From NCBI RefSeq assembly GCF_006345805.1, contig NW_021833792.1, forward strand, positions 1 to 55,120: a stretch of 55,120 nt of DNA, in the 5' to 3' direction. The translations under genes and the position numbers were made by a program. The notes under the pieces were generated by a model. It was not told the DNA's origin. It saw only the letters and a program-made list of their open reading frames with translations, and did not search any database. Origin of the DNA: Octopus sinensis. Lineage: Eukaryota. This document shows, one piece after another, positions 18,260 to 54,570 of the stretch; position 1 is the stretch's first letter; every line of letters begins with the position of its first letter.

Positions 18260-18569
18260 AGATAGACATCTTCTTAGTCCTCTCACTATAAACCAGCAGA
18301 AAATATAATCTAATGTGGAAAAAATATAAAAATAAATAAAAATGACTTTAAATTTTATTTGTGTTTGACTATTACACGTTAAAAATTGTTAATTATGGGA
18401 TGAAAATGAAGACTTAATGTTACAGATATGGCATAATGAAAAAAGAAAATTTATAAAATATGTAATTTCCAGAAATGCTGCTAGTTCTCATTACTTCTGT
18501 GATTTAATAAACCACCCTTGCCCACCAAAAACAAACCACCCAAAATAAAACAAGAAATAGCTAACTTAC

Positions 18570-18764
18570 ACAAGTACTGTTATATTGCCAGCATTTAGAT
18601 GAACACCTTGGTAGTTTGCTAGGAACATAGCTGCTGTTACAATGAACACAGCACTGCCACCCGCATTTAAAGTCACTACTAGAGGTAGTGATACTCCAAC
18701 CACTCGTTTATCAGCACCATTTCTCTCCACAAGACTAGATTCCATTTCTGGAAAGGCAGCAGAA
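18570..18764 (-). CDS. SLC1/EAAT-family transporter exon (HP1b-TM7-HP2a), 195 nt
   Basis: tactttag acceptor and GTAAGT donor, phase 2-2; SAAFPEMESSLVERNGADKRVVGVSLPLVVTLNAGGSAVFIVTAAMFLANYQGVHLNAGNITVL aligns to EAAT SATLP..LEE.NGVDKRV..FVLP.GATINMDGTALYEA. Confidence 0.95.
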
Positions 18765-18894
18765 CTAAAGTAATAGAAAAAATAAATAGATAAAAAAAGT
18801 AAATTGTTGAAAATGAAAAATGATTTCTTTTGACTATTCAATGTTTATACTAGTTATTTAAAGTTATTATTAAATCCATTATACTATAGTTATA

Positions 18895-23566: not shown

Positions 23567-24174
23567 CGTCTCTATATCTATTAAACCATGGTTTTACCTT
23601 TAAATTACCTACTACCATATACCTTATAACAAGGACTATATATACTGAGGTAATACACCAGGAGTGCCTACAGATACACCTATCCCTCAGATGGTTACAT
23701 AACCTCTATCTTACACTATATATATATATATATATATATATTGATATAGATATATTGTTATACTTGGTGATCATCACATTTTGTCAATTAAACACATGCA
23801 CTATATATTTGGTCTTCACTTCAGCTTTATTACTGAACATGTGGCTCTTTAGTGTAACTTTGGTATTTGCACCTACCCCATGTGTGACCATTTTCCTCAT
23901 CTGATCAAAGTAGTAGAGTGGCCAAGGACCCCATAAATCATTTGAAAAAATCCCTGTATGGATAACAACTGTAGAGTATGTAGACTAAATCTACAGATAA
24001 CTGTAAACTTAGGAATGTAGTTTATAGTATAAGGTGTACCAAAGGATGCTGCAGAAACAGGACAATGACATACACTTGGGAGATAGTATGTAGTGTAGGT
24101 GAGCAGATAAGTGAACATTGGTGGGAGCTCAAGGGGGGAAGAAACTCATGAATGCACTACAAACATGTTCAGTT

Positions 24175-24563
24175 AGAATCTGGCCTCCGTGCTGAGGGCA
24201 CGTAACAAACACCATCCGAGCGTGGCCGTCCGCCAGCCTCGTCTGGCACCTGTGTCGGTGACACATAAGAAAACACCATCCGAGCGTGGCCGTCAGCCAG
24301 CCTCGTCTGGCACCTGTGTTGGTGGCACATAAAAAACACCATCCGAGCGTGGCCGTCTGCCAGCCTCGTCTGGCACCTGTGTCGGTGGCACATAAAATCA
24401 CCCACTACACTCTTGGAGTGGTTGGCGTTAGGAAGGGCATCCAGCTGTAGAAACACTGCCAGATCTGACTGGCCTGGTGCAGCCTTCGGGCTTGCCAGAC
24501 CCCAGTTGAACCGTCCAACCTATGCTAGCATGGAAAGCGGACGTTAAACGATGATGATGATGA
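24175..24563 (+). mobile_element. Young RTE-tail SINE-like copy with three internal ~62-bp tandem units
   Basis: aacaccatccgagcgtggccgtc.gccagcctcgtctggcacctgtgt.ggtg.cacataa occurs three times (24208-24397); CpG-rich; (GAT)n tail. Confidence 0.85.
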
Positions 24564-24926
24564 ATAACATAAATATTAAGATATTATCAACACATAAAAC
24601 AGACGTGATACTCAGACAGATCACGGCGGCCACACAGAGAATAGTAGATAGACTGAGCCTCAACAGAAACCATGAATGGAATAACCCAACCCCCACTTCA
24701 TCATGCAACACAACCTAATGACTAAAGACAGAAAAAGAAAAAAGAAGACATACAAATAGACACACATACACATACTAAAGACAGAAAAAGAAGAAAAACA
24801 AAAATAAATAAATAAAAGACATGGGTACAGTGTAATGGGCAAACCCATATACATGCACACAAGACATACATACTAAACACATAGACACACACACACAGAC
24901 ATGTGCAGATAGGGAGGGATACATAA

Positions 24927-25157
24927 CATCATTATCATCGTCGTTTAACGTCTGCTTTCCATGCTAGCATGGGTTGGATGGTTTGACTGGGGTCTGGGAA
25001 GCCAGGAAGCTGCACCAGGCTCCAGTCTGATCTGGCAGTGTTTCTACAGCTGGATGCCCTTCCTAACGCCAACCACTCCGAGAGTGTAGTGGGTGCTTTT
25101 TACATGCCAGGGGAGGCTGGCAATGGCCACAATCGGTTGGTGCTTTTTACGTGCCAA
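24927..25157 (-). mobile_element. RTE-tail SINE-like copy, inverted relative to 24175-24563
   Basis: Reverse complement of the same 3' tail (catcgtcgtttaacgtctgctttccatgctagcatggg...). Confidence 0.85.
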
Positions 25158-26336
25158 AGACAAAATGGAATCAGCAGAACAAGAGGAAAGATGTGGGATA
25201 GAGAGTTGTTGAAGAGGTCACAGAATATGTGATGAAAGAACTTTGACAAAGAAACTAAAATAACATAATGATTTTTGTCTTTAAGTAACAACTGTTATAT
25301 TCTTTTTGTTTACTCCTAGAAAGTATGGCTAATATTTCCTTCAAACTGCTTTGTTGCATTTGTTCAAACCCCAAAGAATCCCTTTCAACACATGGCTATG
25401 ATGCTCCCCCACTACTCATGCTCATGATCAGAGATACACATATTGTTAGCCACTAAGGACATGTTCAAGGGGTTAACGTCAAGCAAATGACAAGCAAATC
25501 TGTAGTATTGAGCAGAATATTTGTTATAATGATATTTCTGCTTCAGCAACTCAGTGCTGAATCTGTCTGAAAATGGGTCAGTTTCAAAACACTGATGTCC
25601 AGTTAAAGTTTTATGGGATTAGTAGTAATTTCTTTTGATTTCTAGATGAAGCAAATAGGAAATAACACTTACTGACCAAAGAAAAAAATTTGTTACACAG
25701 TGTAACAGTAATAAAATTGAAGTAAAGACCAAATATATATGACTATCTCCAAGTATAACAATATCTGTTTCAGTGCATGATTTCACACTAAGAATCTTGT
25801 AAAACAAATACATAAATGTATATATATAGAAGATTTTGTAAACAAAAAAAAAAATAATTGATGCTGTCACAATACTAAAAAAAGATTTTCAGAAAATTAA
25901 TAACTACTTAAAAAACTTTTGAAGCCTTGTGATTGAATTTGGTAGGCAGAAATTACCATCATGTAAATGCTTGTGCCTCCTAACAGCATGACACCTTATT
26001 GAAAGAAGTTTTTGTATCGTGTATGTGTGTGTGCATGTGTGAAGTATAAAACAATGGTTTTATTTGGATTTGAACCCATGAGCAGGAGTCCGATACCATA
26101 TAAACCCAGCCATTTATAATATCATGGTTTTACTTTTTGTGTCCTTGAGCAAGGCAGTTCATTTCATATTGGTGCAGTCTTCTCAACTGAAATGCATACC
26201 AGCAAAAGCTGAGAGGACTGATAACTAATCTGGCAATCTGGCATGATTGTACTCTCTGTTGCTTTGAAACTGAGGTCATCTCTGGCCAAATGAGCTGGTA
26301 GACTTAATACAAACAAGATTTATTAAAAAAAAGTTT

Positions 26337-26412
<76 letters not shown>

Positions 26413-26499
26413 TTTGATACTTTGATAGGTTTCGGCCATTATTGGCCCAGGCCATGTCTAACTTAATAGCACCACCTTTATATATAGATCTATATAAAG

Positions 26500-27990
26500 A
26501 TCAAAATAGTTTGATTCAGACTCCAGAGTTTCAAGTATGTGGCTAGTCTTCAGCCATCGGAGTGTGAATGGGAGTTCAGTTGAAGAGAGTCAATGTTTAC
26601 TACTGGATATTAGCCTGCAATTGGTTGAGAAAGGTCATCTGGTATAGTGGTCTGATGTTGGTATTAAAAAACTCTTCAACTCCCATAATGTCAAGCTAAG
26701 CTACTCCTGCTTAGACAACACTGCATGCATCAACACACCCACACAACCTCTAACTTCAATTTGCAACATTCGGAACCCTACCACCTGCCCCCTAATAGGA
26801 TCCTGCTTCTCAAGGGCTGTAGTATACAGAGCCACCCTTACACCATCTGATGGCATTACTAGGTACTATACAGGCATGACAGTCAATGACTTCAAGAGAA
26901 GATATTCCCAGCACTTGCATTCATTTAGATTCAGGAACAGAGACAACTCTACTTCCCTGTCATACTTTCTCTGAAGACTTTGTGACCTCTGAGACAAAAC
27001 ACCCAGCATCAAGTGGACTATTATCAACAGAGTACCACCATATTCACCCAACATCTCTAATTGTCAGCTGTGCCTCTGTGAACAACTGCATATCATCTAC
27101 CAATCCACAGTATTCATCATCAAGAGATATGAGGTATTGTATTGTTGTCACCAGAGGTACACCAGAGGTACACTCTTCCGGTAAATTTCAAGTCACTGGC
27201 TGCCAACAACCTGGATATACCTCCTTAGTTACCAACCACCCCAACACTGCCTGTACCAAGGTCACTGCCACAAATTAACCCCCACTGCAAATCACCAATC
27301 CCCAACACTTCTCTATGCCTGTATACCTGCATACTCTCACCCCTTATACATGACCACACAAGTATATGTGCACACACATGCACGTGCATGAGTGTATGTG
27401 TACATCTGCTCATCGTTTGCATGTGCACAGATGTTTGTGCATGGGCATACATATGTGCACCCACACATGTGCATGTATATACATGTGCACACTTGCATGT
27501 CCTCATGTGCATATGTACATGGAATTAAAGGCTTGCGTGCACATGTGTATGTATATGTGTATGTCTGCATGCATGCGGATGTATGAGTGTACATCTAAGC
27601 ACATACACACTCGTATAAGTATGGATGCATACATGTAGATATATGGACATATACATGTACATATATACCCACACATCTGCTTCCCCCAACCACACAACCA
27701 GCTTCTTGTCTACCACGCAGTCGATCTCCTGTTCACCATGCAGTATTTTCCAACTAATTGTTATTGCTGAAATACCAACAACAGACCACTATACCATGTG
27801 ACCTTTCCCAATCAATCGCAGGAAATCAACCAGTAGTAAACATTGACTCTCTTCAATCGAGCTCTCATTCAGACTCCAATGGTCAAAGACTAACCATATG
27901 CTTGAGACTCAGAATACCAAGGAGTCTGAATCAAACTGTTTTGATCAATACATGTAACTCCCAATAAATGTGTTGAGTGCCCTTCTTTCT
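26500..27990 (+). mobile_element. Penelope-like element (Cys-linker plus GIY-YIG) with inverted terminal segments
   Basis: CNIRNPTTCPLIGSCFSRAVVYRATL...YYTGMTVNDFKRRYSQHLHSFR (about 26762-26930); 26499-26570 is an inverted, diverged copy of about 27866-27946. Confidence 0.8.
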
Positions 27991-28023
27991 ACTCACTCAT
28001 ACACACACACATATATATATATA

Positions 28024-28533
28024 AAGTAAATAAATGGAGTTGAACGAAAATGTTATTAAAATTCTTTCACTTTCGACATATGTTTTGAAGACAACATGGT
28101 TTTATTCCAAAGGAATAAACGGTGTAAAATGCAATCTTCTCATCAGGAAAGAAAGAGAGCCTATCTCAACAACAAGACATTATAACAATTACGATGACTG
28201 CCTAAATGATTGTAGTTGTTATAATGTCTTGTTGTTGAGATAGGCTCTCTTTCTTTCCTGATGAGAAGATTGCATTTTACACCGTTTATTCCTTTGGAAT
28301 AAAACCATGTTGTCTTCAAAACATATGTCGAAAATAAAAGAATTTTAATAACATCTTCGTTCAACTCCATTTATTTACTTATAATACACAAATTACTGCA
28401 CATTAACCCGGAGTTTCTACCTTTGAATAGGTCGCTTCATCCGTGTTACTTGCATGAATTTTGCTACCCTGGTAACTGTTTATTGAATTTTCCATGTTAA
28501 CGGTAAACAAAGGATAATTCCTTCATCCATTTA
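28024..28533 (+). mobile_element. Non-autonomous PLE-type terminal repeat with a 172-bp palindrome and hammerhead-like motifs
   Basis: Arms 28024-28195 and 28209-28380 are near-perfect reverse complements with a 13-nt loop; flanked by (TA)n on both sides. Confidence 0.85.
28250..28335 (+). ncRNA. Type I hammerhead motif, G12>A variant (mirror copy at about 28070-28155, minus strand)
   Basis: tttc CTGATGA gaagat...gtcttc AAAAC ATAT GTC gaaa; stems I, II and III are present, but GAAA reads AAAA. Confidence 0.65.
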
Positions 28534-28698
28534 AATATATATATATATATATATATAAATATATTTATATTATATTGAGGGTACTACTATTCGTAGATAC
28601 CACACGCTAAGAGGGACCAATGCGGTCAAAACTACTAAAATAAACAAAATTTTACCGAATGCAAAACTTCAAAGCAAATCATTTAAAAAAAGAATTTA

Positions 28699-28762
28699 GT
28701 TACATATCACCTGTGATTTCGCAATTAATGCAGAATATGCATTCCATGTTCATCAGTGCAAC
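28699..28762 (-). ncRNA. Type I hammerhead ribozyme motif (sense to the SLC1 pre-mRNA)
   Basis: Minus strand reads gttgca CTGATGA acatggaatgcatattctgcattaattgc GAAA tcac ag gtga TA tgtaac; stem I gttgca/tgtaac, stem III tcac/gtga. Confidence 0.75.
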
Positions 28763-29311
28763 AAACTCAAGATATATAAGAAAAAACATAACGTTACAAG
28801 CTCGATAGCCAACCACAGAATTCGTCGTAGCATGTACGAATGTTTATCTTTACATATCTATGAAAATGGCGGGCTTATTCACAATGCATTTTGGTAACAA
28901 ATTGCTTACTTGGAATAAAAATTTTGCATTCGGTAAAATTTTGTTTATTTTAGTAGTTTTGACTGCATTGGTCCCTCTTAGCGTGTGGTATCTACGAATA
29001 GTAGTACCCTCAATATAATATAAATAAATATTTTCAAAGTGGAAAAATTTACGGATTTTTTCTCTTACGAGGTTTTTCACGCTAACTACTGATAATTTCT
29101 TTTATCCTCAATTGTTAATTTATATTTTTCACCAGAATAGTTCAATACTAAATTTTTATTCTGAGTAAGCAATTTGTTACAGAAATGCATTGCGAATAAG
29201 CCCGCCATTTTCATAGATATGTAAAGATAAACATTCGTACATGCTACGACGAATTCTATGGTTGGCTATCGAGCTTGTAACGTTATGTTTTTTCTTATAT
29301 ATCTTGAGTTT

Positions 29312-29375
29312 GTTGCACTGATGAACATGGAATGCATATTCTGCATTAATTGCGAAATCACAGGTGATATGTAAC
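29312..29375 (+). ncRNA. Type I hammerhead ribozyme motif (identical inverted copy)
   Basis: CTGATGA 29318-29324, GAAA 29354-29357, stem III tcac/gtga, AUA cleavage triplet ending at 29369; the base of stem II is imperfect (A-C). Confidence 0.75.
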
Positions 29376-29719
29376 TAAATTCTTTTTTTAAATGATTTGC
29401 TTTGAAGTTTTGCATTCGGTAAAATTTTGTTTATTTTAGTAGTTTTGACCGCATTGGTCCCTCTTAGCGTGTGGTATCTACGAATAGTAGTACCCTCAAT
29501 ATAATATAAATAAATATTTTCAAAGTGGAAAAATTTACGGATTTTTTCTCTTACGAGGTTTTTCACGCTAACTACTGATAATTTCTTTTAAAGAGTTTAT
29601 CCTCAATTGTTAACCCATGCTAGCATGAAAAACGGACGCTAAACGATGATGATGATGATGATGATATTAAGTATAGGAAAGAATGGAGCTGAACGAAGAT
29701 TTAACAAAGTTCCTTTATT

Positions 29720-29808
29720 TTATTTTCGACATATGTTTCGAAGTCTGCAAAATCCCTAATTCCGAATGAATAAGGAGTCCATTATGCAGCTTTCTCTTCA
29801 GGAAAAAA
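29720..29808 (-). ncRNA. Canonical minimal type I hammerhead ribozyme within a PLE terminal repeat (29667-29825)
   Basis: Minus strand reads ttttc CTGAAGA gaaagctgca...tgcagacttc GAAAC ATAT GTC gaaaa: complete core, GUC site and palindromic stem III. Confidence 0.85.
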
Positions 29809-29822
29809 CAGCTTCGATAATA

Positions 29823-29865
<43 letters not shown>

Positions 29866-30032
29866 ATGTATGTATATCATCATTTATACATTTATATATA
29901 TTATACACTTTGAAACCCATCTGTATGTACCATACACAAATCTCTAGTTCTTATAAATTAAATGGTTAAGTTGTTAACCTGGTTTATATTATTTGTAAAA
30001 GTTCCATCAACAGTAATATTGTTTTAACTTAC

Positions 30033-30266
30033 CTGCTGGTGAAAGTAAATGCTAAAATATAAGGCCGTATGCAGGTGAAGAAGAACTTAAATGGGTTTTT
30101 CCGGAAAATAATAAGGTATATCAGATTCATGAAGACCAACATATGGCAAGCAAGTCCAATCAAAACAGTGAGGCTAAACATTCCAAGACTGGTGAAGAGT
30201 GTGCTGATGTCCTTAATACCGGCTACTGATGCCATTATCAAACTAGCGACGCCAATTGGAGTTATT
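30033..30266 (-). CDS. SLC1/EAAT-family transporter exon (TM5 end-TM6-HP1a), 234 nt
   Basis: ttttgttttgcag acceptor and GTAAGT donor, phase 2-2; ITPIGVASLIMASVAGIKDISTLFTSLGMFSLTVLIGLACH...IIFRKNPFKFF...LAFTFTS, typical of SLC1. Confidence 0.95.
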
Positions 30267-30339
30267 CTGCAAAACAAAATTCACAGAGCTGCAAGAACAA
30301 TTTAAGAATCACTAATAATATGAAACCCTCTCTTAAGGA

Positions 30340-31525
30340 AACAAGTCTTCTGAGATGAGTATAATTGCAGGAGAGATGATAAAAGCATCCAAGGTTAGGA
30401 CTTTGGGGTTAAGCGGGACAAACTTCAGATTGGTCAATAAAGAATTCTGGCAGATTAGCTACCAACTTTGTAACAAAGAGCTCTCATCCACATCTCCCAT
30501 TGATAACTCAGTAGGGGTTCTTCTCTGTATAGAGAAGAGCCTTCTGAGGAGGTGGGGAAAATACTAGAGAATGTATTCTCTAGCTGATCACTGTATGCTA
30601 AGTGACTGGAGCAATTGAAAAGACACCAAAGCAATCGGGAGGTGGGGTGTGTGTGTGATAATCCCTATTTTTAAAAAGGGAAACAAGAGAAAGTGCTCTA
30701 GTTACTGAACAATTCCCCCCCCCCCCAGCTAGCTGTCTAGAAAAGAGATGTAGGGAAATTGTTGAGCTCAAGGTAGCTGAAGAACAGTGTGGCTTCTGTT
30801 CTGGACCTAGCATAGCCAACCAGATATTCACTCTATGGCAGGTGTTTCAGAAATTATGGGAGTATTACCAACAAGAGTATGCTTGCTTTGTAGACCTTGA
30901 AAAGGCATATGACTGTGTGGAGGGTTTTGCAGAAATTTGGGATTAATGGGCAATTTCTAATTACTATGTCTTTATATAAATGCCAAAATATTTGTGTTTG
31001 GATTAATGGTGCTGGGTTGAAACTTTTCAATGTGGGTGCAGGACCTTGGCAGAGATGTGCATTGTCACCTTTCTTTTTCATAATTTTTATGAAGTGGAAT
31101 GATATGCACAGCTTTTTGTGGAAATGGAGTCACAATTGGTCAATGTAGGATCAGTTGGCTGATATTTGCAGATGACATGGTGCTACTTGACTCCTCAGAA
31201 GATATTTTCCAGCATTTACTGAATGGGTTTACTGATGAATGCTGCAAGGCAGAGATGAAAGTTAGTGTTGCTAAGACTGAGACTTCCCTGTATGTCAGTG
31301 GAAGATCACTGAGACAAGTGGAGAAGTTTAAGCATCTTGGGGCCGTGTTTACAACTGATGGGCAGCAGGAGACCTTATTGAAGGCTAAAACTGCATGTAC
31401 TGGCACAGTTATGTGCAAGGTTCAGCATTCAATCCTCAGGAGAGGAGAGGTTGGTAAAAGAATTCATCTTCAATTCAGTTTTTATACCTATCTTCATGTA
31501 TGGTCATGAATGTTGGGTAATGACT
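30340..31525 (+). mobile_element. RTE-like LINE RT fragment (a different family from 2318-5556)
   Basis: EEQCGF, FVDLEKAYD, QRCALSPFFFIIFM, LIFADDMVLL, QVEKFKHLG. Confidence 0.85.
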
Positions 31526-32261
31526 AAGGCAATTTTTTGCCAAAAAGTTGAAATTCATAAAAACATTCATTTCAAGGTTAAAACCAATGATAAAAAAACA
31601 TATTTTTACTATTAATCATTGTAATTAATCACTTTTTAAAGTTAATAAAGTTAAAATCATGCAATAAACTTAAAATAAAGTTAAAAAATGAAATTTCACT
31701 AAAAAGAAAATTTTTTTGATTAGATACTGAAAAGAATAAATAAATTCATAGATATATATTTTCATGTAGTGATTAAACCAAAATTTGATATGTATTTCTG
31801 CTAGTTTATAGTAGAACTGTGGTATTGGACGAACTCTTCAGAGTTATTTTTAGCATTCCCTGTAGCTTGTCCTACCCTTTGATATTAAAAATTATTTGAC
31901 ACCATGTATGTCCAGCCATTTGAACACAAACAAGTCTAGCATGTCAGTATAGTTTTCCTGTAAGACAAATTTCTAACTTCAATGTACTTTTACCAATATT
32001 AGTTTTTGGTGACTGATACCAAGAGCTAACATTGATTATTTGCATCTTTTTACCAATTCATAAAACAGGACTCTTTAAGAATAGAATTATTTAATACCAT
32101 CCAATTATAAGAATATCTACTAACAACTTTAATTCTTTGCACTTGTTATTTAGAAATTTTAAATTTACCATTGTAAGTAAGAACTTTTCCTTGCTGTACT
32201 TTTCACAATAAGTAAATGTGCAGTATGCTAGTTGTTTCTCAATATTTCAATTTTTCATGTT

Positions 32262-51145: not shown

Positions 51146-51187
<42 letters not shown>

Positions 51188-51245
51188 TATATCTATATAT
51201 ATATGTATATATATATATATGTATATATATATATAGTATAGATAC

Positions 51246-51276
<31 letters not shown>

Positions 51277-51468
51277 GATAGGGATATATATATATATAAT
51301 GGATATATATATATATGTATATATATATATATGTATATATATATATGGTATATATATATGTATATATATATATATGTATATAATATATATATGTAGATAT
51401 ATATATCTAGTATATATATATATATGTATATATAGATATATGTATATATATATTATGTATATAATATG

Positions 51469-51515
<47 letters not shown>

Positions 51516-51517
51516 GT

Positions 51518-51572
<55 letters not shown>

Positions 51573-51694
51573 GTATATATATATATTATATATATATATG
51601 TATAGATATAGATATGTATAGGTATATTAAGTATGTATATTATATAATATGTATATATATATATATTATATGTATATATTATGTATGATATATG

Positions 51695-51725
<31 letters not shown>

Positions 51726-51872
51726 GTATATATATATATAGGTATATGTATATATATATATATATGTATATATATATCATATGTATATATAATATATATG
51801 ATATATATATATAGATATGTGATATATATATATTATGTATATATTATATATATGTATAATATATATATATAT

Positions 51873-51915
<43 letters not shown>

Positions 51916-52936
51916 AATATAGATTATGGTAGATATATATATGGATATATATATATATATGTATATATGTATATATATATATATATATATATGTATTATA
52001 TTGTATGTATAAAATAAAAAATAATGTATATATATGTTATAGATAAATATATATAATATATTATGTATATATATGTAGATATGTATATATATGTATAATA
52101 TATATATGTATAATATATACAATATATGGTGTATATATATATGATATATATATATATGTATAATGTGTATATATATATATATGTATAATGTAATCTATTA
52201 GTTGTATATTATAGAATAAATGTCATATATATGTATTATGTAACATATGTATAAATGTATAGATATATGTATATATGTATATATATTATATATATATATA
52301 TGTATATATGTATATATATATGTATCTATATATGTATATATATATTATGTATATATATATGTATTGTTATTGTATTGCAGAGCTATCAGTGATAGCATGA
52401 TAGACAAGTCAAAGATAATAAGACGCGGAATACACCAACAACATAATAAAGGTGACAAGAATATTACAGTGGCAACAACAATACACAAATGGATGAGGAT
52501 CACACTTAACATGCATATATATATTATATATATATATATATAAGATATATACGAGATAATATATAATATATGTATGTATATTATATATATGTATATAGAT
52601 AGTATATATATGTATATATTTATATATATATATATCTATGTAATATATATAATATGTATTCCATAATATATATAAAAATAGAGCCATATATCTATATATA
52701 TATAGATATATATATGTATATATATATGTATATGCTATATATATATAGTTATATATATCCGTATCAGTATATATAATATGTATATATTATATATCTGTAT
52801 ATATATATAAATATATATATGTATATACAATGATATATATATGTCTATATAATATATATGTATAGATATATTAATGTATATATATAGTAGTATATATATA
52901 TATGTATATCTATATATATGTCGATATAGATATATG

Positions 52937-52967
<31 letters not shown>

Positions 52968-53137
52968 TATAGATATATATATATATATATATAGATATAT
53001 ATGTATATATATATATATATGTATATATATATGTATATATATATGTATATATATATGTAGATATATATATATATATGTATATATATATGTATTTATAATA
53101 AGATATATGTATAATATATTATTAGTTATTATATAAG

Positions 53138-53171
<34 letters not shown>

Positions 53172-53216
53172 GTATATATAATATATAATGTATATATATA
53201 TATATATATATTATAG

Positions 53217-53254
<38 letters not shown>

Positions 53255-53299
53255 TATATATATATATATATGATATATATATATGTATATATATATATG

Positions 53300-53332
<33 letters not shown>

Positions 53333-53361
53333 GTATATAAAAATTATGTATAGATAATATG

Positions 53362-53394
<33 letters not shown>

Positions 53395-53599
53395 GTATAT
53401 ATATGTATATATGATATATATGTATATATATATATATGTATATATATATATGTGTATATATATATGTATATATATATATATGTATATATGTGTATATATA
53501 TTATATATGTATATATGTAGATATATATATGTATGTATATATATGTATAAATGTATATATAGTATATAGTATATAAGTATAAATGTATATATATATGTA

Positions 53600-53642
<43 letters not shown>

Positions 53643-53734
53643 ATATATATATGTATATATATGTATATATATATATATGTATATATAGTGTATATATGTA
53701 TATATATATGTATATATATATATATATATGTATG

Positions 53735-53783
<49 letters not shown>

Positions 53784-53803
53784 GATATAGATTATATATA
53801 TAT
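51143..53803. repeat. Noisy (TA)n/(TATG)n microsatellite, 2.6 kb
   Basis: Read directly; contains a second copy of the LTR end at 52366-52520. Confidence 0.95.
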
Positions 53804-53827
53804 ATTTTTTTTTTTTTAGCTTATCAT

Positions 53828-54570
53828 ATAGATAGCTAAAAAAAAATTTTTCTTTTCACTTCTTGACTGCCGCACTACATTCGCCTGCTTGTTTGTTTAC
53901 ATCGTCTTTCCTAAATATCCCCTTATTATCATGTGCTGTCAATTTCTCCCCTTCTCCATATCACTTTGTCTGTTCTTCGCCCTAAATTATCCTTCATTTT
54001 TATGCGCTGATAATTTCTCCAACTTCGCGCATTCGCCTGCTTGTTTGTTTACATCGTCTTTCCTAAATATCCCCTTATTATCATGTGCTGACAATTTCTC
54101 CCCTTCTCCATATCACTTTGTCTGTTTTTCGCCCTAAATTATCCTTCATTTTTATGCGCTGATAATTTCTACCTTTTCTCCATGTTACTACGATAATTAT
54201 CTACGATAATTTGCCCAAACTTCGCTATCTTGAAGTCTGTTTCTTTAGTAAACTTCCACCTTGTCCGCCCTTGAAACTCAAAATCCCCTTCCGGTCAATC
54301 TATACTTAAAAGGACACCCCATGTGCTCTATTACTCATTCATCTAGCTGCGACCAATGCCAGAATATAGATAAGCTAAAAATTTTTCTTTTCACTTCTTG
54401 ACAGCCGAACTACATTCGCCTGCTTGTTTGTTTATATCGTCTTTCCTAAATATCCCCTTATTATCATGTGCTGTCAATTTCTCCCCTTTCTCATATCACT
54501 TTGTCTGTTCTTCGCCCTAAATTATCCTTCATTTTTTATGCGCTGAGAATTCTCCAACTTCGCGCATTCG
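53828..54570. repeat. ~152-bp unit repeated three times (53878-54029, 54030-54170, 54413-54570)
   Basis: cattcgcctgcttgtttgttta.atcgtctttcctaaatatcccc...tgcgctga.aatt; copies nearly identical and CpG-rich. Confidence 0.9.

Follow-up and report, generated by a model that had tools for sequence, protein, structure and literature searches.

Stacked insertions at (TA)n tracts in an octopus transporter intron: truncated Penelope-like elements and a non-coding hammerhead unit probably moved by enzymes of the same type

We analysed a stretch of 55,120 nucleotides (nt) from Octopus sinensis (NCBI RefSeq assembly GCF_006345805.1, contig NW_021833792.1, positions 1 to 55,120 of the forward strand; hereafter ‘the window’), in which a cluster of repeats, several of them with hammerhead ribozyme motifs, occupies positions 26340-29860 within an intron of an SDF/SLC1-family gene. 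Searches of the octopus's own genome split this region into four hammerhead-bearing families, labelled A, B, C and D (B3 being a sister family of B), a long interspersed nuclear element (LINE) end and one further repeat fragment, i.e. five repeat families plus a fragment instead of the ‘four adjacent elements’ counted in a preliminary description. The cluster itself is an ordinary stacking of independent insertions at AT microsatellites, composed of end pieces that belong to Penelope-like elements (PLEs; A, C and D), the LINE end and one copy of B. With high confidence, we read B, a unit without any open reading frame (ORF), as likely moved by PLE-type enzymes through the mechanism proposed below. 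The significance of this reading lies less in the cluster than in two regularities of the sampled copies, a pairing rule between insertion arms and an accumulation of 5' ends behind the predicted cleavage site. In this one genome, an insertion signature that can be counted is common to a retrozyme-like unit and to autonomous PLEs, with hundreds to thousands of copies; this bears on which enzyme moves animal retrozymes and on whether PLE hammerheads cleave in vivo.

A non-coding unit among truncated Penelope-like elements

Family B (28559-29613) is the only non-autonomous family of the cluster. Its 495-nt unit has a GC content of 30%, one type I hammerhead and a longest ATG-initiated frame of 49 amino acids (aa). 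The window copy comprises an inverted arm with a short 3' end (28559-28930, minus strand, ending at unit position approx. 399, hammerhead at 28705-28756), a partial upstream unit forming a partial tandem (28919-29118, plus strand, unit positions approx. 287-495) and a complete ORF-less unit with a long 3' end (29119-29613, plus strand), the hammerhead of which (29318-29369) is predicted to cleave after 29369. A 27-mer anchored in the tail (the optional segment between the short and long 3' ends) has 537 exact matches in the genome, versus 0 for its reversed control. We took 85 loci from the first 100 of these matches and kept 82, all of which are built from pieces of the 495-nt unit only. The unit junction lies inside 33 of the 126 arms, and 28 arms are longer than one unit (up to 1010 nt); the partial tandems are circularly permuted, with monomers, dimers and one trimer (L137), and the copies are mostly dispersed, with few multimers. 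A hammerhead-anchored pattern used in the search for a parent of B returned 500 matches, B3 included, and thereby revealed this 480-nt non-autonomous sister (L392-L421, L386-L388), which is identical to B at 353 positions and has the same two 3' ends and the same anatomy. A fixed 5' end of B3 was rejected as an artefact of the query.

In contrast with B, families A (28011-28530), C (29664-29811) and D (26491-27989) are of a known kind, namely the 5'-truncated ends of predicted protein-coding PLEs of Hydra-like type. Family A consists of an inverted arm with a short 3' end (28011-28208, minus strand, +54 from the predicted cleavage site, hammerhead at 28075-28146) and a sense arm with a long 3' end (28209-28530, plus strand, approx. 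+201, hammerhead at 28258-28329), the truncated 3' end of an element with reverse transcriptase (RT) and endonuclease (EN). Family C, likewise a truncated RT+EN end, is present as a solo minus-strand arm with a short 3' end (+66) and an intact core at 29728-29801. Family D pairs an inverted arm with a short end (26491-26665, minus strand) with a sense arm (26661-27989, plus strand) that holds a broken Hydra-type GIY-YIG EN (approx. 26648-27181) and a 3' untranslated region. This remnant is the only coding trace in the cluster, as had been noticed beforehand: it matches four full-length RT+EN proteins with tblastn (E 2e-22 to 3e-16), its Pfam match (E 0.036) falling below the cut-off.

Elsewhere in the genome, 8 of 49 long arms of A and 16 of 50 of C reach the ORF. 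Going upstream, these longer copies encode an EN of the GIY-YIG type, then a linker rich in Asn and an RT that has the DKT motif. RT followed by a C-terminal GIY-YIG EN was recovered in order in L121, L124, L127 and L128, all with broken frames, and the change from DKG to DKT is seen in the frames of L121 and L128. Read by eye, the A and C EN translations have no CCHH motif and carry CxxC and CxH near the C-terminus. Since their Asn-rich linkers do not have the CxCX5C cysteines, A and C were filed as Hydra-like variants. Their RTs are 72% identical to each other, and each is 36-40% identical to four full-length database proteins of 713-720 aa. Family D, with an EN 31-34% identical to proteins P0001-P0004, a mostly CxF linker, no DKT region recovered and a decayed hammerhead, is best read as an older element of the same Hydra type, present as an EN fragment. 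Its copies elsewhere are 72-83% identical over the EN region, and the best copies of C are 99-100% identical to the window C. Pfam returned no informative family for the PLE RT and EN pieces, nor for P0001 and P0002.

Two further observations concern these coding families. The Asn-rich linkers of A and C (L121, L122, L127, L128) are, in A, often (AAT)n-expanded, and A and C target (TA)n without the Cys linker that has been proposed to direct such targeting; N-rich inserts are described for rotifer PLEs (PMC3846280). In addition, 7 of 50 C 5' ends cluster between -157 and -130, immediately behind a TATA-like box, and the interval from -157 to -712 holds none, which suggests a putative second, short transcript from the terminal repeat, or a short form of the element.

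The preliminary description had taken all the families as non-autonomous. This interpretation is partly supported, being right for one family of four: B is the short multicopy form that sets it apart from mere broken PLE ends, while copies of A and C run into EN/RT coding sequence and D is an old EN fragment. Accordingly, the autonomous PLE sharing a terminus, which had been suggested as a target of the search, was found for A and C, whose copies reach an RT+EN ORF, and not for B. When five Hydra protein pieces were compared with 118 B loci, 5 loci gave matches, none of them contiguous with the B 5' end. Likewise, no linked ORF was detected in these 118 loci, in 36 further loci or in 30 B3 loci (the sets overlap in part). 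The partner comparison covered A, C, D and one fourth Hydra family of this genome; in the latter, the 1500 nt downstream of the EN at 30 loci contained no B match and a single unlinked inverted B3 fragment. This fourth family (L422-L451, e.g. G000:C17:47288735-47289178) is itself young and abundant; it has the canonical CxCX5C linker and frames that stay open for up to 727-766 aa, and a simple pattern detected no hammerhead within 900 nt downstream of its EN match.

All four hammerhead families, B included, could in principle be broken ends of full-length PLEs, the parent ORF of B having escaped sampling. This is true of A, C and D, PLE partial tandems do repeat terminal sequence, and only the 85 B loci drawn from the first 100 matches were taken. 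For B itself, however, what lies upstream of a full unit is the unit's own 3' end, in the 33 junction-crossing arms and equally in B3, and the searches for a linked ORF, over the partly overlapping sets of loci given above, came back empty; we consider this explanation very unlikely.

A shared insertion signature and its proposed mechanism

For comparison with B, 50 A loci were taken from the first 100 of 285 matches and 50 C loci from the first 100 of 144. We dropped three B duplicates (L151, L165, L166), the loci L141 and L189, the second copy present in each of L184 and L191, and arms with unclassified ends; matches to the CA/TG-rich segment of D were discarded as low complexity. Each family then displayed two fixed 3' ends: +54 and approx. 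+201 in A, +66 and approx. +213 in C (both from the predicted cleavage site), and unit positions 399 and 495 in B. The optional tail of A and C measures approx. 150 nt, that of B and B3 96-113 nt. On either side of the short 3' end of B and B3 stand two complementary blocks (window 29461-29569, noticed by eye in the alignment), which could pair into a stem with that start site in its loop.

The proposal that these elements target microsatellites is supported by the sequence at their 3' ends. A (TA)4 lies within 30 nt of 125 of 135 B 3' ends, versus 995 of 12226 control positions (8%) in the same loci; the corresponding figures are 54 of 71 for A (control 6.4%) and 65 of 82 for C (control 6.5%). 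Moreover, in every family the head-to-head pairs whose two ends could be classed join a long end to a short one (46 pairs in B, 18 in A, 30 in C, 9 in B3), and long+long pairs are absent; pairs with an unclassified arm (6 in B, 9 in A, 4 in C, 5 in B3) stand outside these counts. The single short+short pair in B proved to be a parsing artefact of L141. The two arms of a pair also resemble each other more than they resemble typical other copies (divergence 2.0% versus 3.8% in B, 2.2% versus 4.2% in C, 6.2% versus 7.9% in A), suggesting that they may come from one source locus, with a possible contribution of later gene conversion. The fold-back of a single cDNA was rejected as the sole source of inverted arms and is insufficient in its simple form, because in several pairs (L145, L244, L343) neither arm contains the other.

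With its partial tandem, inverted arm and optional tail, B has the insertion anatomy of a non-autonomous PLE. Since B lands like A and C, it likely borrows PLE enzymes. It also has both of the sequence-level features of a non-LTR (long terminal repeat) retrozyme, namely a short ORF-less tandem unit and a type I hammerhead in each unit. B thus fits the description of a non-LTR retrozyme mobilised by PLE enzymes, its mobilisation being deduced from insertion anatomy and not from homology, because a parent was not found.

The mechanism that we propose would start with a GIY-YIG endonuclease that cleaves a palindromic (TA)n tract on its two strands. Reverse transcription would then be primed from each of them at a position within the RNA, the long site serving one strand and the short site its counterpart, and the two cDNAs, copied from the same source locus, would stop early and be joined head to head. 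In B, the RNA, whether a multimer or a ligated circle, would offer the same two start sites without any ORF, and copying over the unit junction would yield the circularly permuted partial tandems; arms longer than one unit fit a circle and a multimer equally. The hammerhead would likely cleave only part of the templates, leaving some cDNAs that end just after the site. Finally, the (TA)n left at the ends of new insertions would attract further insertions, hence a cluster.

B could also be non-autonomous and yet be carried by a LINE or spread as DNA through satellite-like duplication, with the hammerhead as a passenger. Consistent with a LINE carrier, the abundant LINE present here also ends next to (TA)n (20 of 30 copies), and the ends of B are common to no PLE among A, C, D and the fourth Hydra family. 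B, however, ends at either of two internal 3' positions, has neither poly(A) nor a repeated tail, and forms overlapping head-to-head arms, one with a long and one with a short end, as in A and C; its copies are dispersed with few multimers; and its hammerhead has undergone compensatory changes (see below). We give this explanation hardly any weight, marginally less even than an overlooked parent ORF.

Hammerhead motifs and 5' ends near the predicted cleavage site

A descriptor scan of the window recovered all five hammerhead cores of the preliminary description as type I motifs, at 28075-28146 (minus strand), 28258-28329 (plus), 28705-28756 (minus), 29318-29369 (plus) and 29728-29801 (minus). 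Only the last, in C, passes the strict descriptor: both A cores have AAAA for GAAA, and in both window B cores the 10.1-11.1 pair, as a rule the G-C at the opening of stem II, is an A.C mismatch. Two extra, degenerate cores lie in D (26519-26553, minus strand, and 27883-27926, plus strand, the latter decayed). Core strings alone are weak evidence, since 6 of 9 perfect-core matches in the window fall outside the cluster region and Rfam gave no hammerhead family among 41 matches (E up to 5, positions 24000-32000), only hairpin-like microRNA matches below gathering scores. The reality of the motifs is established by their multicopy conservation and covariation. Indeed, the core is intact in 44 of 49 copies of B, 17 of 28 of A and 31 of 38 of C. 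Position 7 of the B hammerhead is free (A in 12, T in 19 and C in 18 of 49 copies), and a catalytic core kept around a free position 7 points to probable selection for chemistry, not for fold alone. In 21 aligned B and B3 motifs, 98.3% of the cells are paired, versus 16-49% in slid controls, and four pairs of stem I and one of stem II have both partners changed. Stem III of B is near-palindromic or palindromic.

The same core mutation occurs in both arms of the window A (28086 and 28318). Since nearly all other copies have G at 28318, as read from contigs of three presumed-RNA sequencing runs and one unlabelled run, AAAA is not the state of the family; the mutation was present in the source copy, spread by conversion or arose by recurrent CpG decay. 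The sequencing-run contigs, which span 90-99% of A, B and C, reveal neither starts nor ends nor circles; because they are drawn from many copies, we did not use them as evidence on expression.

An excess of 5' ends just downstream of the predicted cleavage site was predicted from upstream starts seen earlier and then tested on newly fetched loci, the final hazard test counting one arm per insertion in place of both arms. Between +1 and +25, ends occur at 1.09 per 100 nt at risk in B, 1.17 in A and 1.00 in C; pooled, this amounts to 31 events in 2874 nt, versus 46 in 11531 nt in the flanking windows. With AT content and palindromes as covariates (15 windows; L228, L351, L397, L400 and L402 also left out), this window stands out most among the 15, with a rate ratio of 3.6 (p 4e-7); the next has p 0.036. 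The excess recurs in B3, where 5 of 28 ends fall in 3.7% of the exposure (p 0.003).

We consider, with modest confidence, that hammerhead cleavage is the probable cause of this pile-up. A serious competitor, to which we attach a substantial probability, is that RT stalled at the foot of a folded, uncleaved hammerhead, or that junctions formed by microhomology, without any cleaved RNA. The B3 ends lie at +7, +8, +11, +15 and +22, +7 being the foot of stem I, ends are in excess from -24 to 0 as well (rate ratio 2.0, p 0.036), and the in vitro study of the Poseidon element PAc of Anolis discussed below describes no RNA reads ending at the site. Conversely, stem I itself contains some C ends, at +1, +2 and +6; the effect is not absorbed by AT content or palindromes; and the conserved catalytic core with its free position 7 argues for the chemistry as a selected trait in addition to the fold.

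Several observations weigh against our reading, in its cleavage component or as a whole. Stalling at stem I predicts nearly the same 5'-end positions as cleavage, BLAST places ends at AT-rich junctions only to within a few bases, and in A the +26 to +50 window (0.92 per 100 nt) is barely below +1 to +25. Moreover, 58 of the 126 B arms read through the site, so that any cleavage would be partial. As for the ribozyme itself, the 10.1-11.1 pair of B is A.C in 31 of 49 copies, including both window motifs, and G-C in 17; the covariation stems mostly from the split between two lineages and was assessed on a structure that we had specified ourselves; and the hammerhead form of the window B motif (-9.5) is not its minimum-energy fold (-10.9). 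In experiments on PAc in vitro, hammerhead mutants had no effect on insertion, no RNA reads ended at the site, and the two strands showed no difference in start site (PMC11167929). The pairing rule has its own limits, as short+short pairs of sub-unit arms are invisible to a sampling based on anchors placed in the tail. In the window, the long end of B and the short end of C are not joined to (TA)n. Finally, no autonomous element with the termini of B was found, A, C, D and the young fourth Hydra family all being unmatched, and the sole direct link between B and a PLE is a B-A chimera in L191 that could be a nested insertion.

This chimera (L191:1542-2666) is tandemly duplicated and joins an A-like piece (+12 to +67) to the B 5' end, possibly through a template switch. 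A bolder version of our reading would have B and B3 as circular-RNA retrozymes that are inserted by PLEs despite lacking recognisable homology to any parent, with strand-asymmetric priming making every inverted PLE insertion and the 5'-end pile-up reflecting cleavage in vivo; we put this forward only tentatively, and would not be surprised to see it fail. The families offer the features of a test system: start sites at defined positions of the RNA, core variants that occur naturally (G-C versus A.C, G12A) and a predicted pairing rule.

Comparison with known systems and genomic setting

Penelope-like elements of the Hydra clade are characterised in section 11 of PMC8557442 by an RT with GIY-YIG EN, a DKT motif, CxxC/CxH without CCHH and a CxCX5C linker. 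A and C resemble them in having an RT followed by a GIY-YIG EN, DKT, no CCHH, and CxxC and CxH around E and N, together with a hammerhead carried by the 3' terminal repeat, insertion at (TA)n and head-to-head inverted, 5'-truncated arms. They differ by an Asn-rich linker (A, C) or CxF (most D copies) in place of CxCX5C, and by tails of approx. 150 nt (A, C) or 96-113 nt (B, B3), when the PLE tail, already known along with the inverted arm, usually measures 30-40 bp (PMC8557442, PMC3846280). The clade had been thought possibly undescribed in cephalopods; it is not new to them, because Hydra-1_Obim from Octopus bimaculoides, with a hammerhead and a (TA)n preference, has already been published (Craig et al. 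2021, PMC8557442 supplement). The particular families here nevertheless appear to differ from that element, as its listed hammerhead, compared by eye, is unlike those of the window. Minimal dimer-type hammerheads, and opposite-strand pairs 100-700 bp apart, are described in PMC4209133. A 2026 repeat annotation of Octopus vulgaris reports 31 recently active Penelope-like families, its main text making no mention of hammerhead, retrozyme or ribozyme. In our literature search, from which the repeat libraries Repbase and Dfam stood apart, no published description of B was found.

PLEs have been named as candidate mobilisers of animal retrozymes (Cervera and de la Pena 2020, PMC7229834), a role supported in vertebrates by co-occurrence and by pseudo-LTR (pLTR) homology (Li, Clavereau and Pollet 2026, 10.64898/2026.07.22.740005, a preprint whose main text names no mollusc among its invertebrate samples). 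B is like the animal non-LTR retrozymes of these two studies in its low-GC, ORF-less unit, its one type I hammerhead and its monomers, dimers and trimer. The 495- and 480-nt units of B and B3 exceed the 170-400 nt of PMC7229834 and lie within the 51-972 bp of 10.64898/2026.07.22.740005. B differs further in occurring mostly as dispersed partial tandems and inverted pairs, and in that its link to PLEs is a shared insertion signature instead of co-occurrence or pLTR homology, the family being known here from its sequence alone. The closest parallel among non-autonomous PLEs is with Chlamys elements such as MRC1 and Chlamys-N4_cRei, which likewise code for no protein and depend on PLEs, form pLTR-like partial tandems, insert at microsatellites and are heavily truncated at the 5' end (PMC8557442, PMC9977147). 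According to these sources, however, non-autonomous Chlamys PLEs as a rule have a 3' end in common with an autonomous partner, and canonical hammerheads are missing from most Chlamys, whereas B has a hammerhead and no identified partner. In vitro, Poseidon PAc of Anolis uses two internal RT start sites and has both target strands cut (Frangieh et al. 2024, PMC11167929). It shares with the present families these two start sites defining the tail, the cutting and extension of both strands and AT-rich targets; it differs in that the genomic copies here pair a long with a short end and show an excess of 5' ends just after the cleavage site.

The preliminary description had placed the cluster in a transporter intron, its elements bounded or separated by (TA)n runs. 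The first point is borne out, exon matches to the minus-strand SDF/SLC1 gene lying on either side of the cluster (30035-30280 and 18557-18766). As to the second, runs are indeed present at 26340-26411, approx. 28011-28024, 28535-28558 (between the A long end and the B short end) and 29826-29860 (at the C 5' junction), but there is none between B and C, and the first borders a LINE, not a PLE, because 26412-26476 (minus strand) is a LINE 3' end. In its own-genome copies, this end has a hairpin and a short repeated tail without a hammerhead core; one of its 27-mers has 4449 exact matches in the genome, and upstream of it other copies carry an RVT_1 ORF (E 3e-26). This highly covered piece had been considered as a hammerhead variant, which the RVT_1 ORF found upstream elsewhere rules out. 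Between B and C lies the head fragment of another common repeat with (CAT)n (29614-29663, minus strand; motif in 7 of 421 loci, window-derived loci included), so that this gap holds (GAT)n rather than (TA)n.

Inverted arms of 185 and 372 nt and a direct repeat of 186 nt are present in the cluster. Four of the seven cores have the sense of the host pre-mRNA, and the intact core of C stands approx. 230 nt from the upstream exon; an effect of the cluster on the transporter transcript is possible. The inverted arms at 28011-28393 and 28559-29515 would pair over long stretches of the host pre-mRNA, and the resulting double-stranded RNA might serve as a substrate for editing. Beyond the host exon, broken RVT_1 fragments of another non-LTR element occur at 30662-31509 (plus strand), and a 2.7-kb AT-rich array of dinucleotide type spans 51146-53805, followed by 71/152-bp repeats at 53878-54183.

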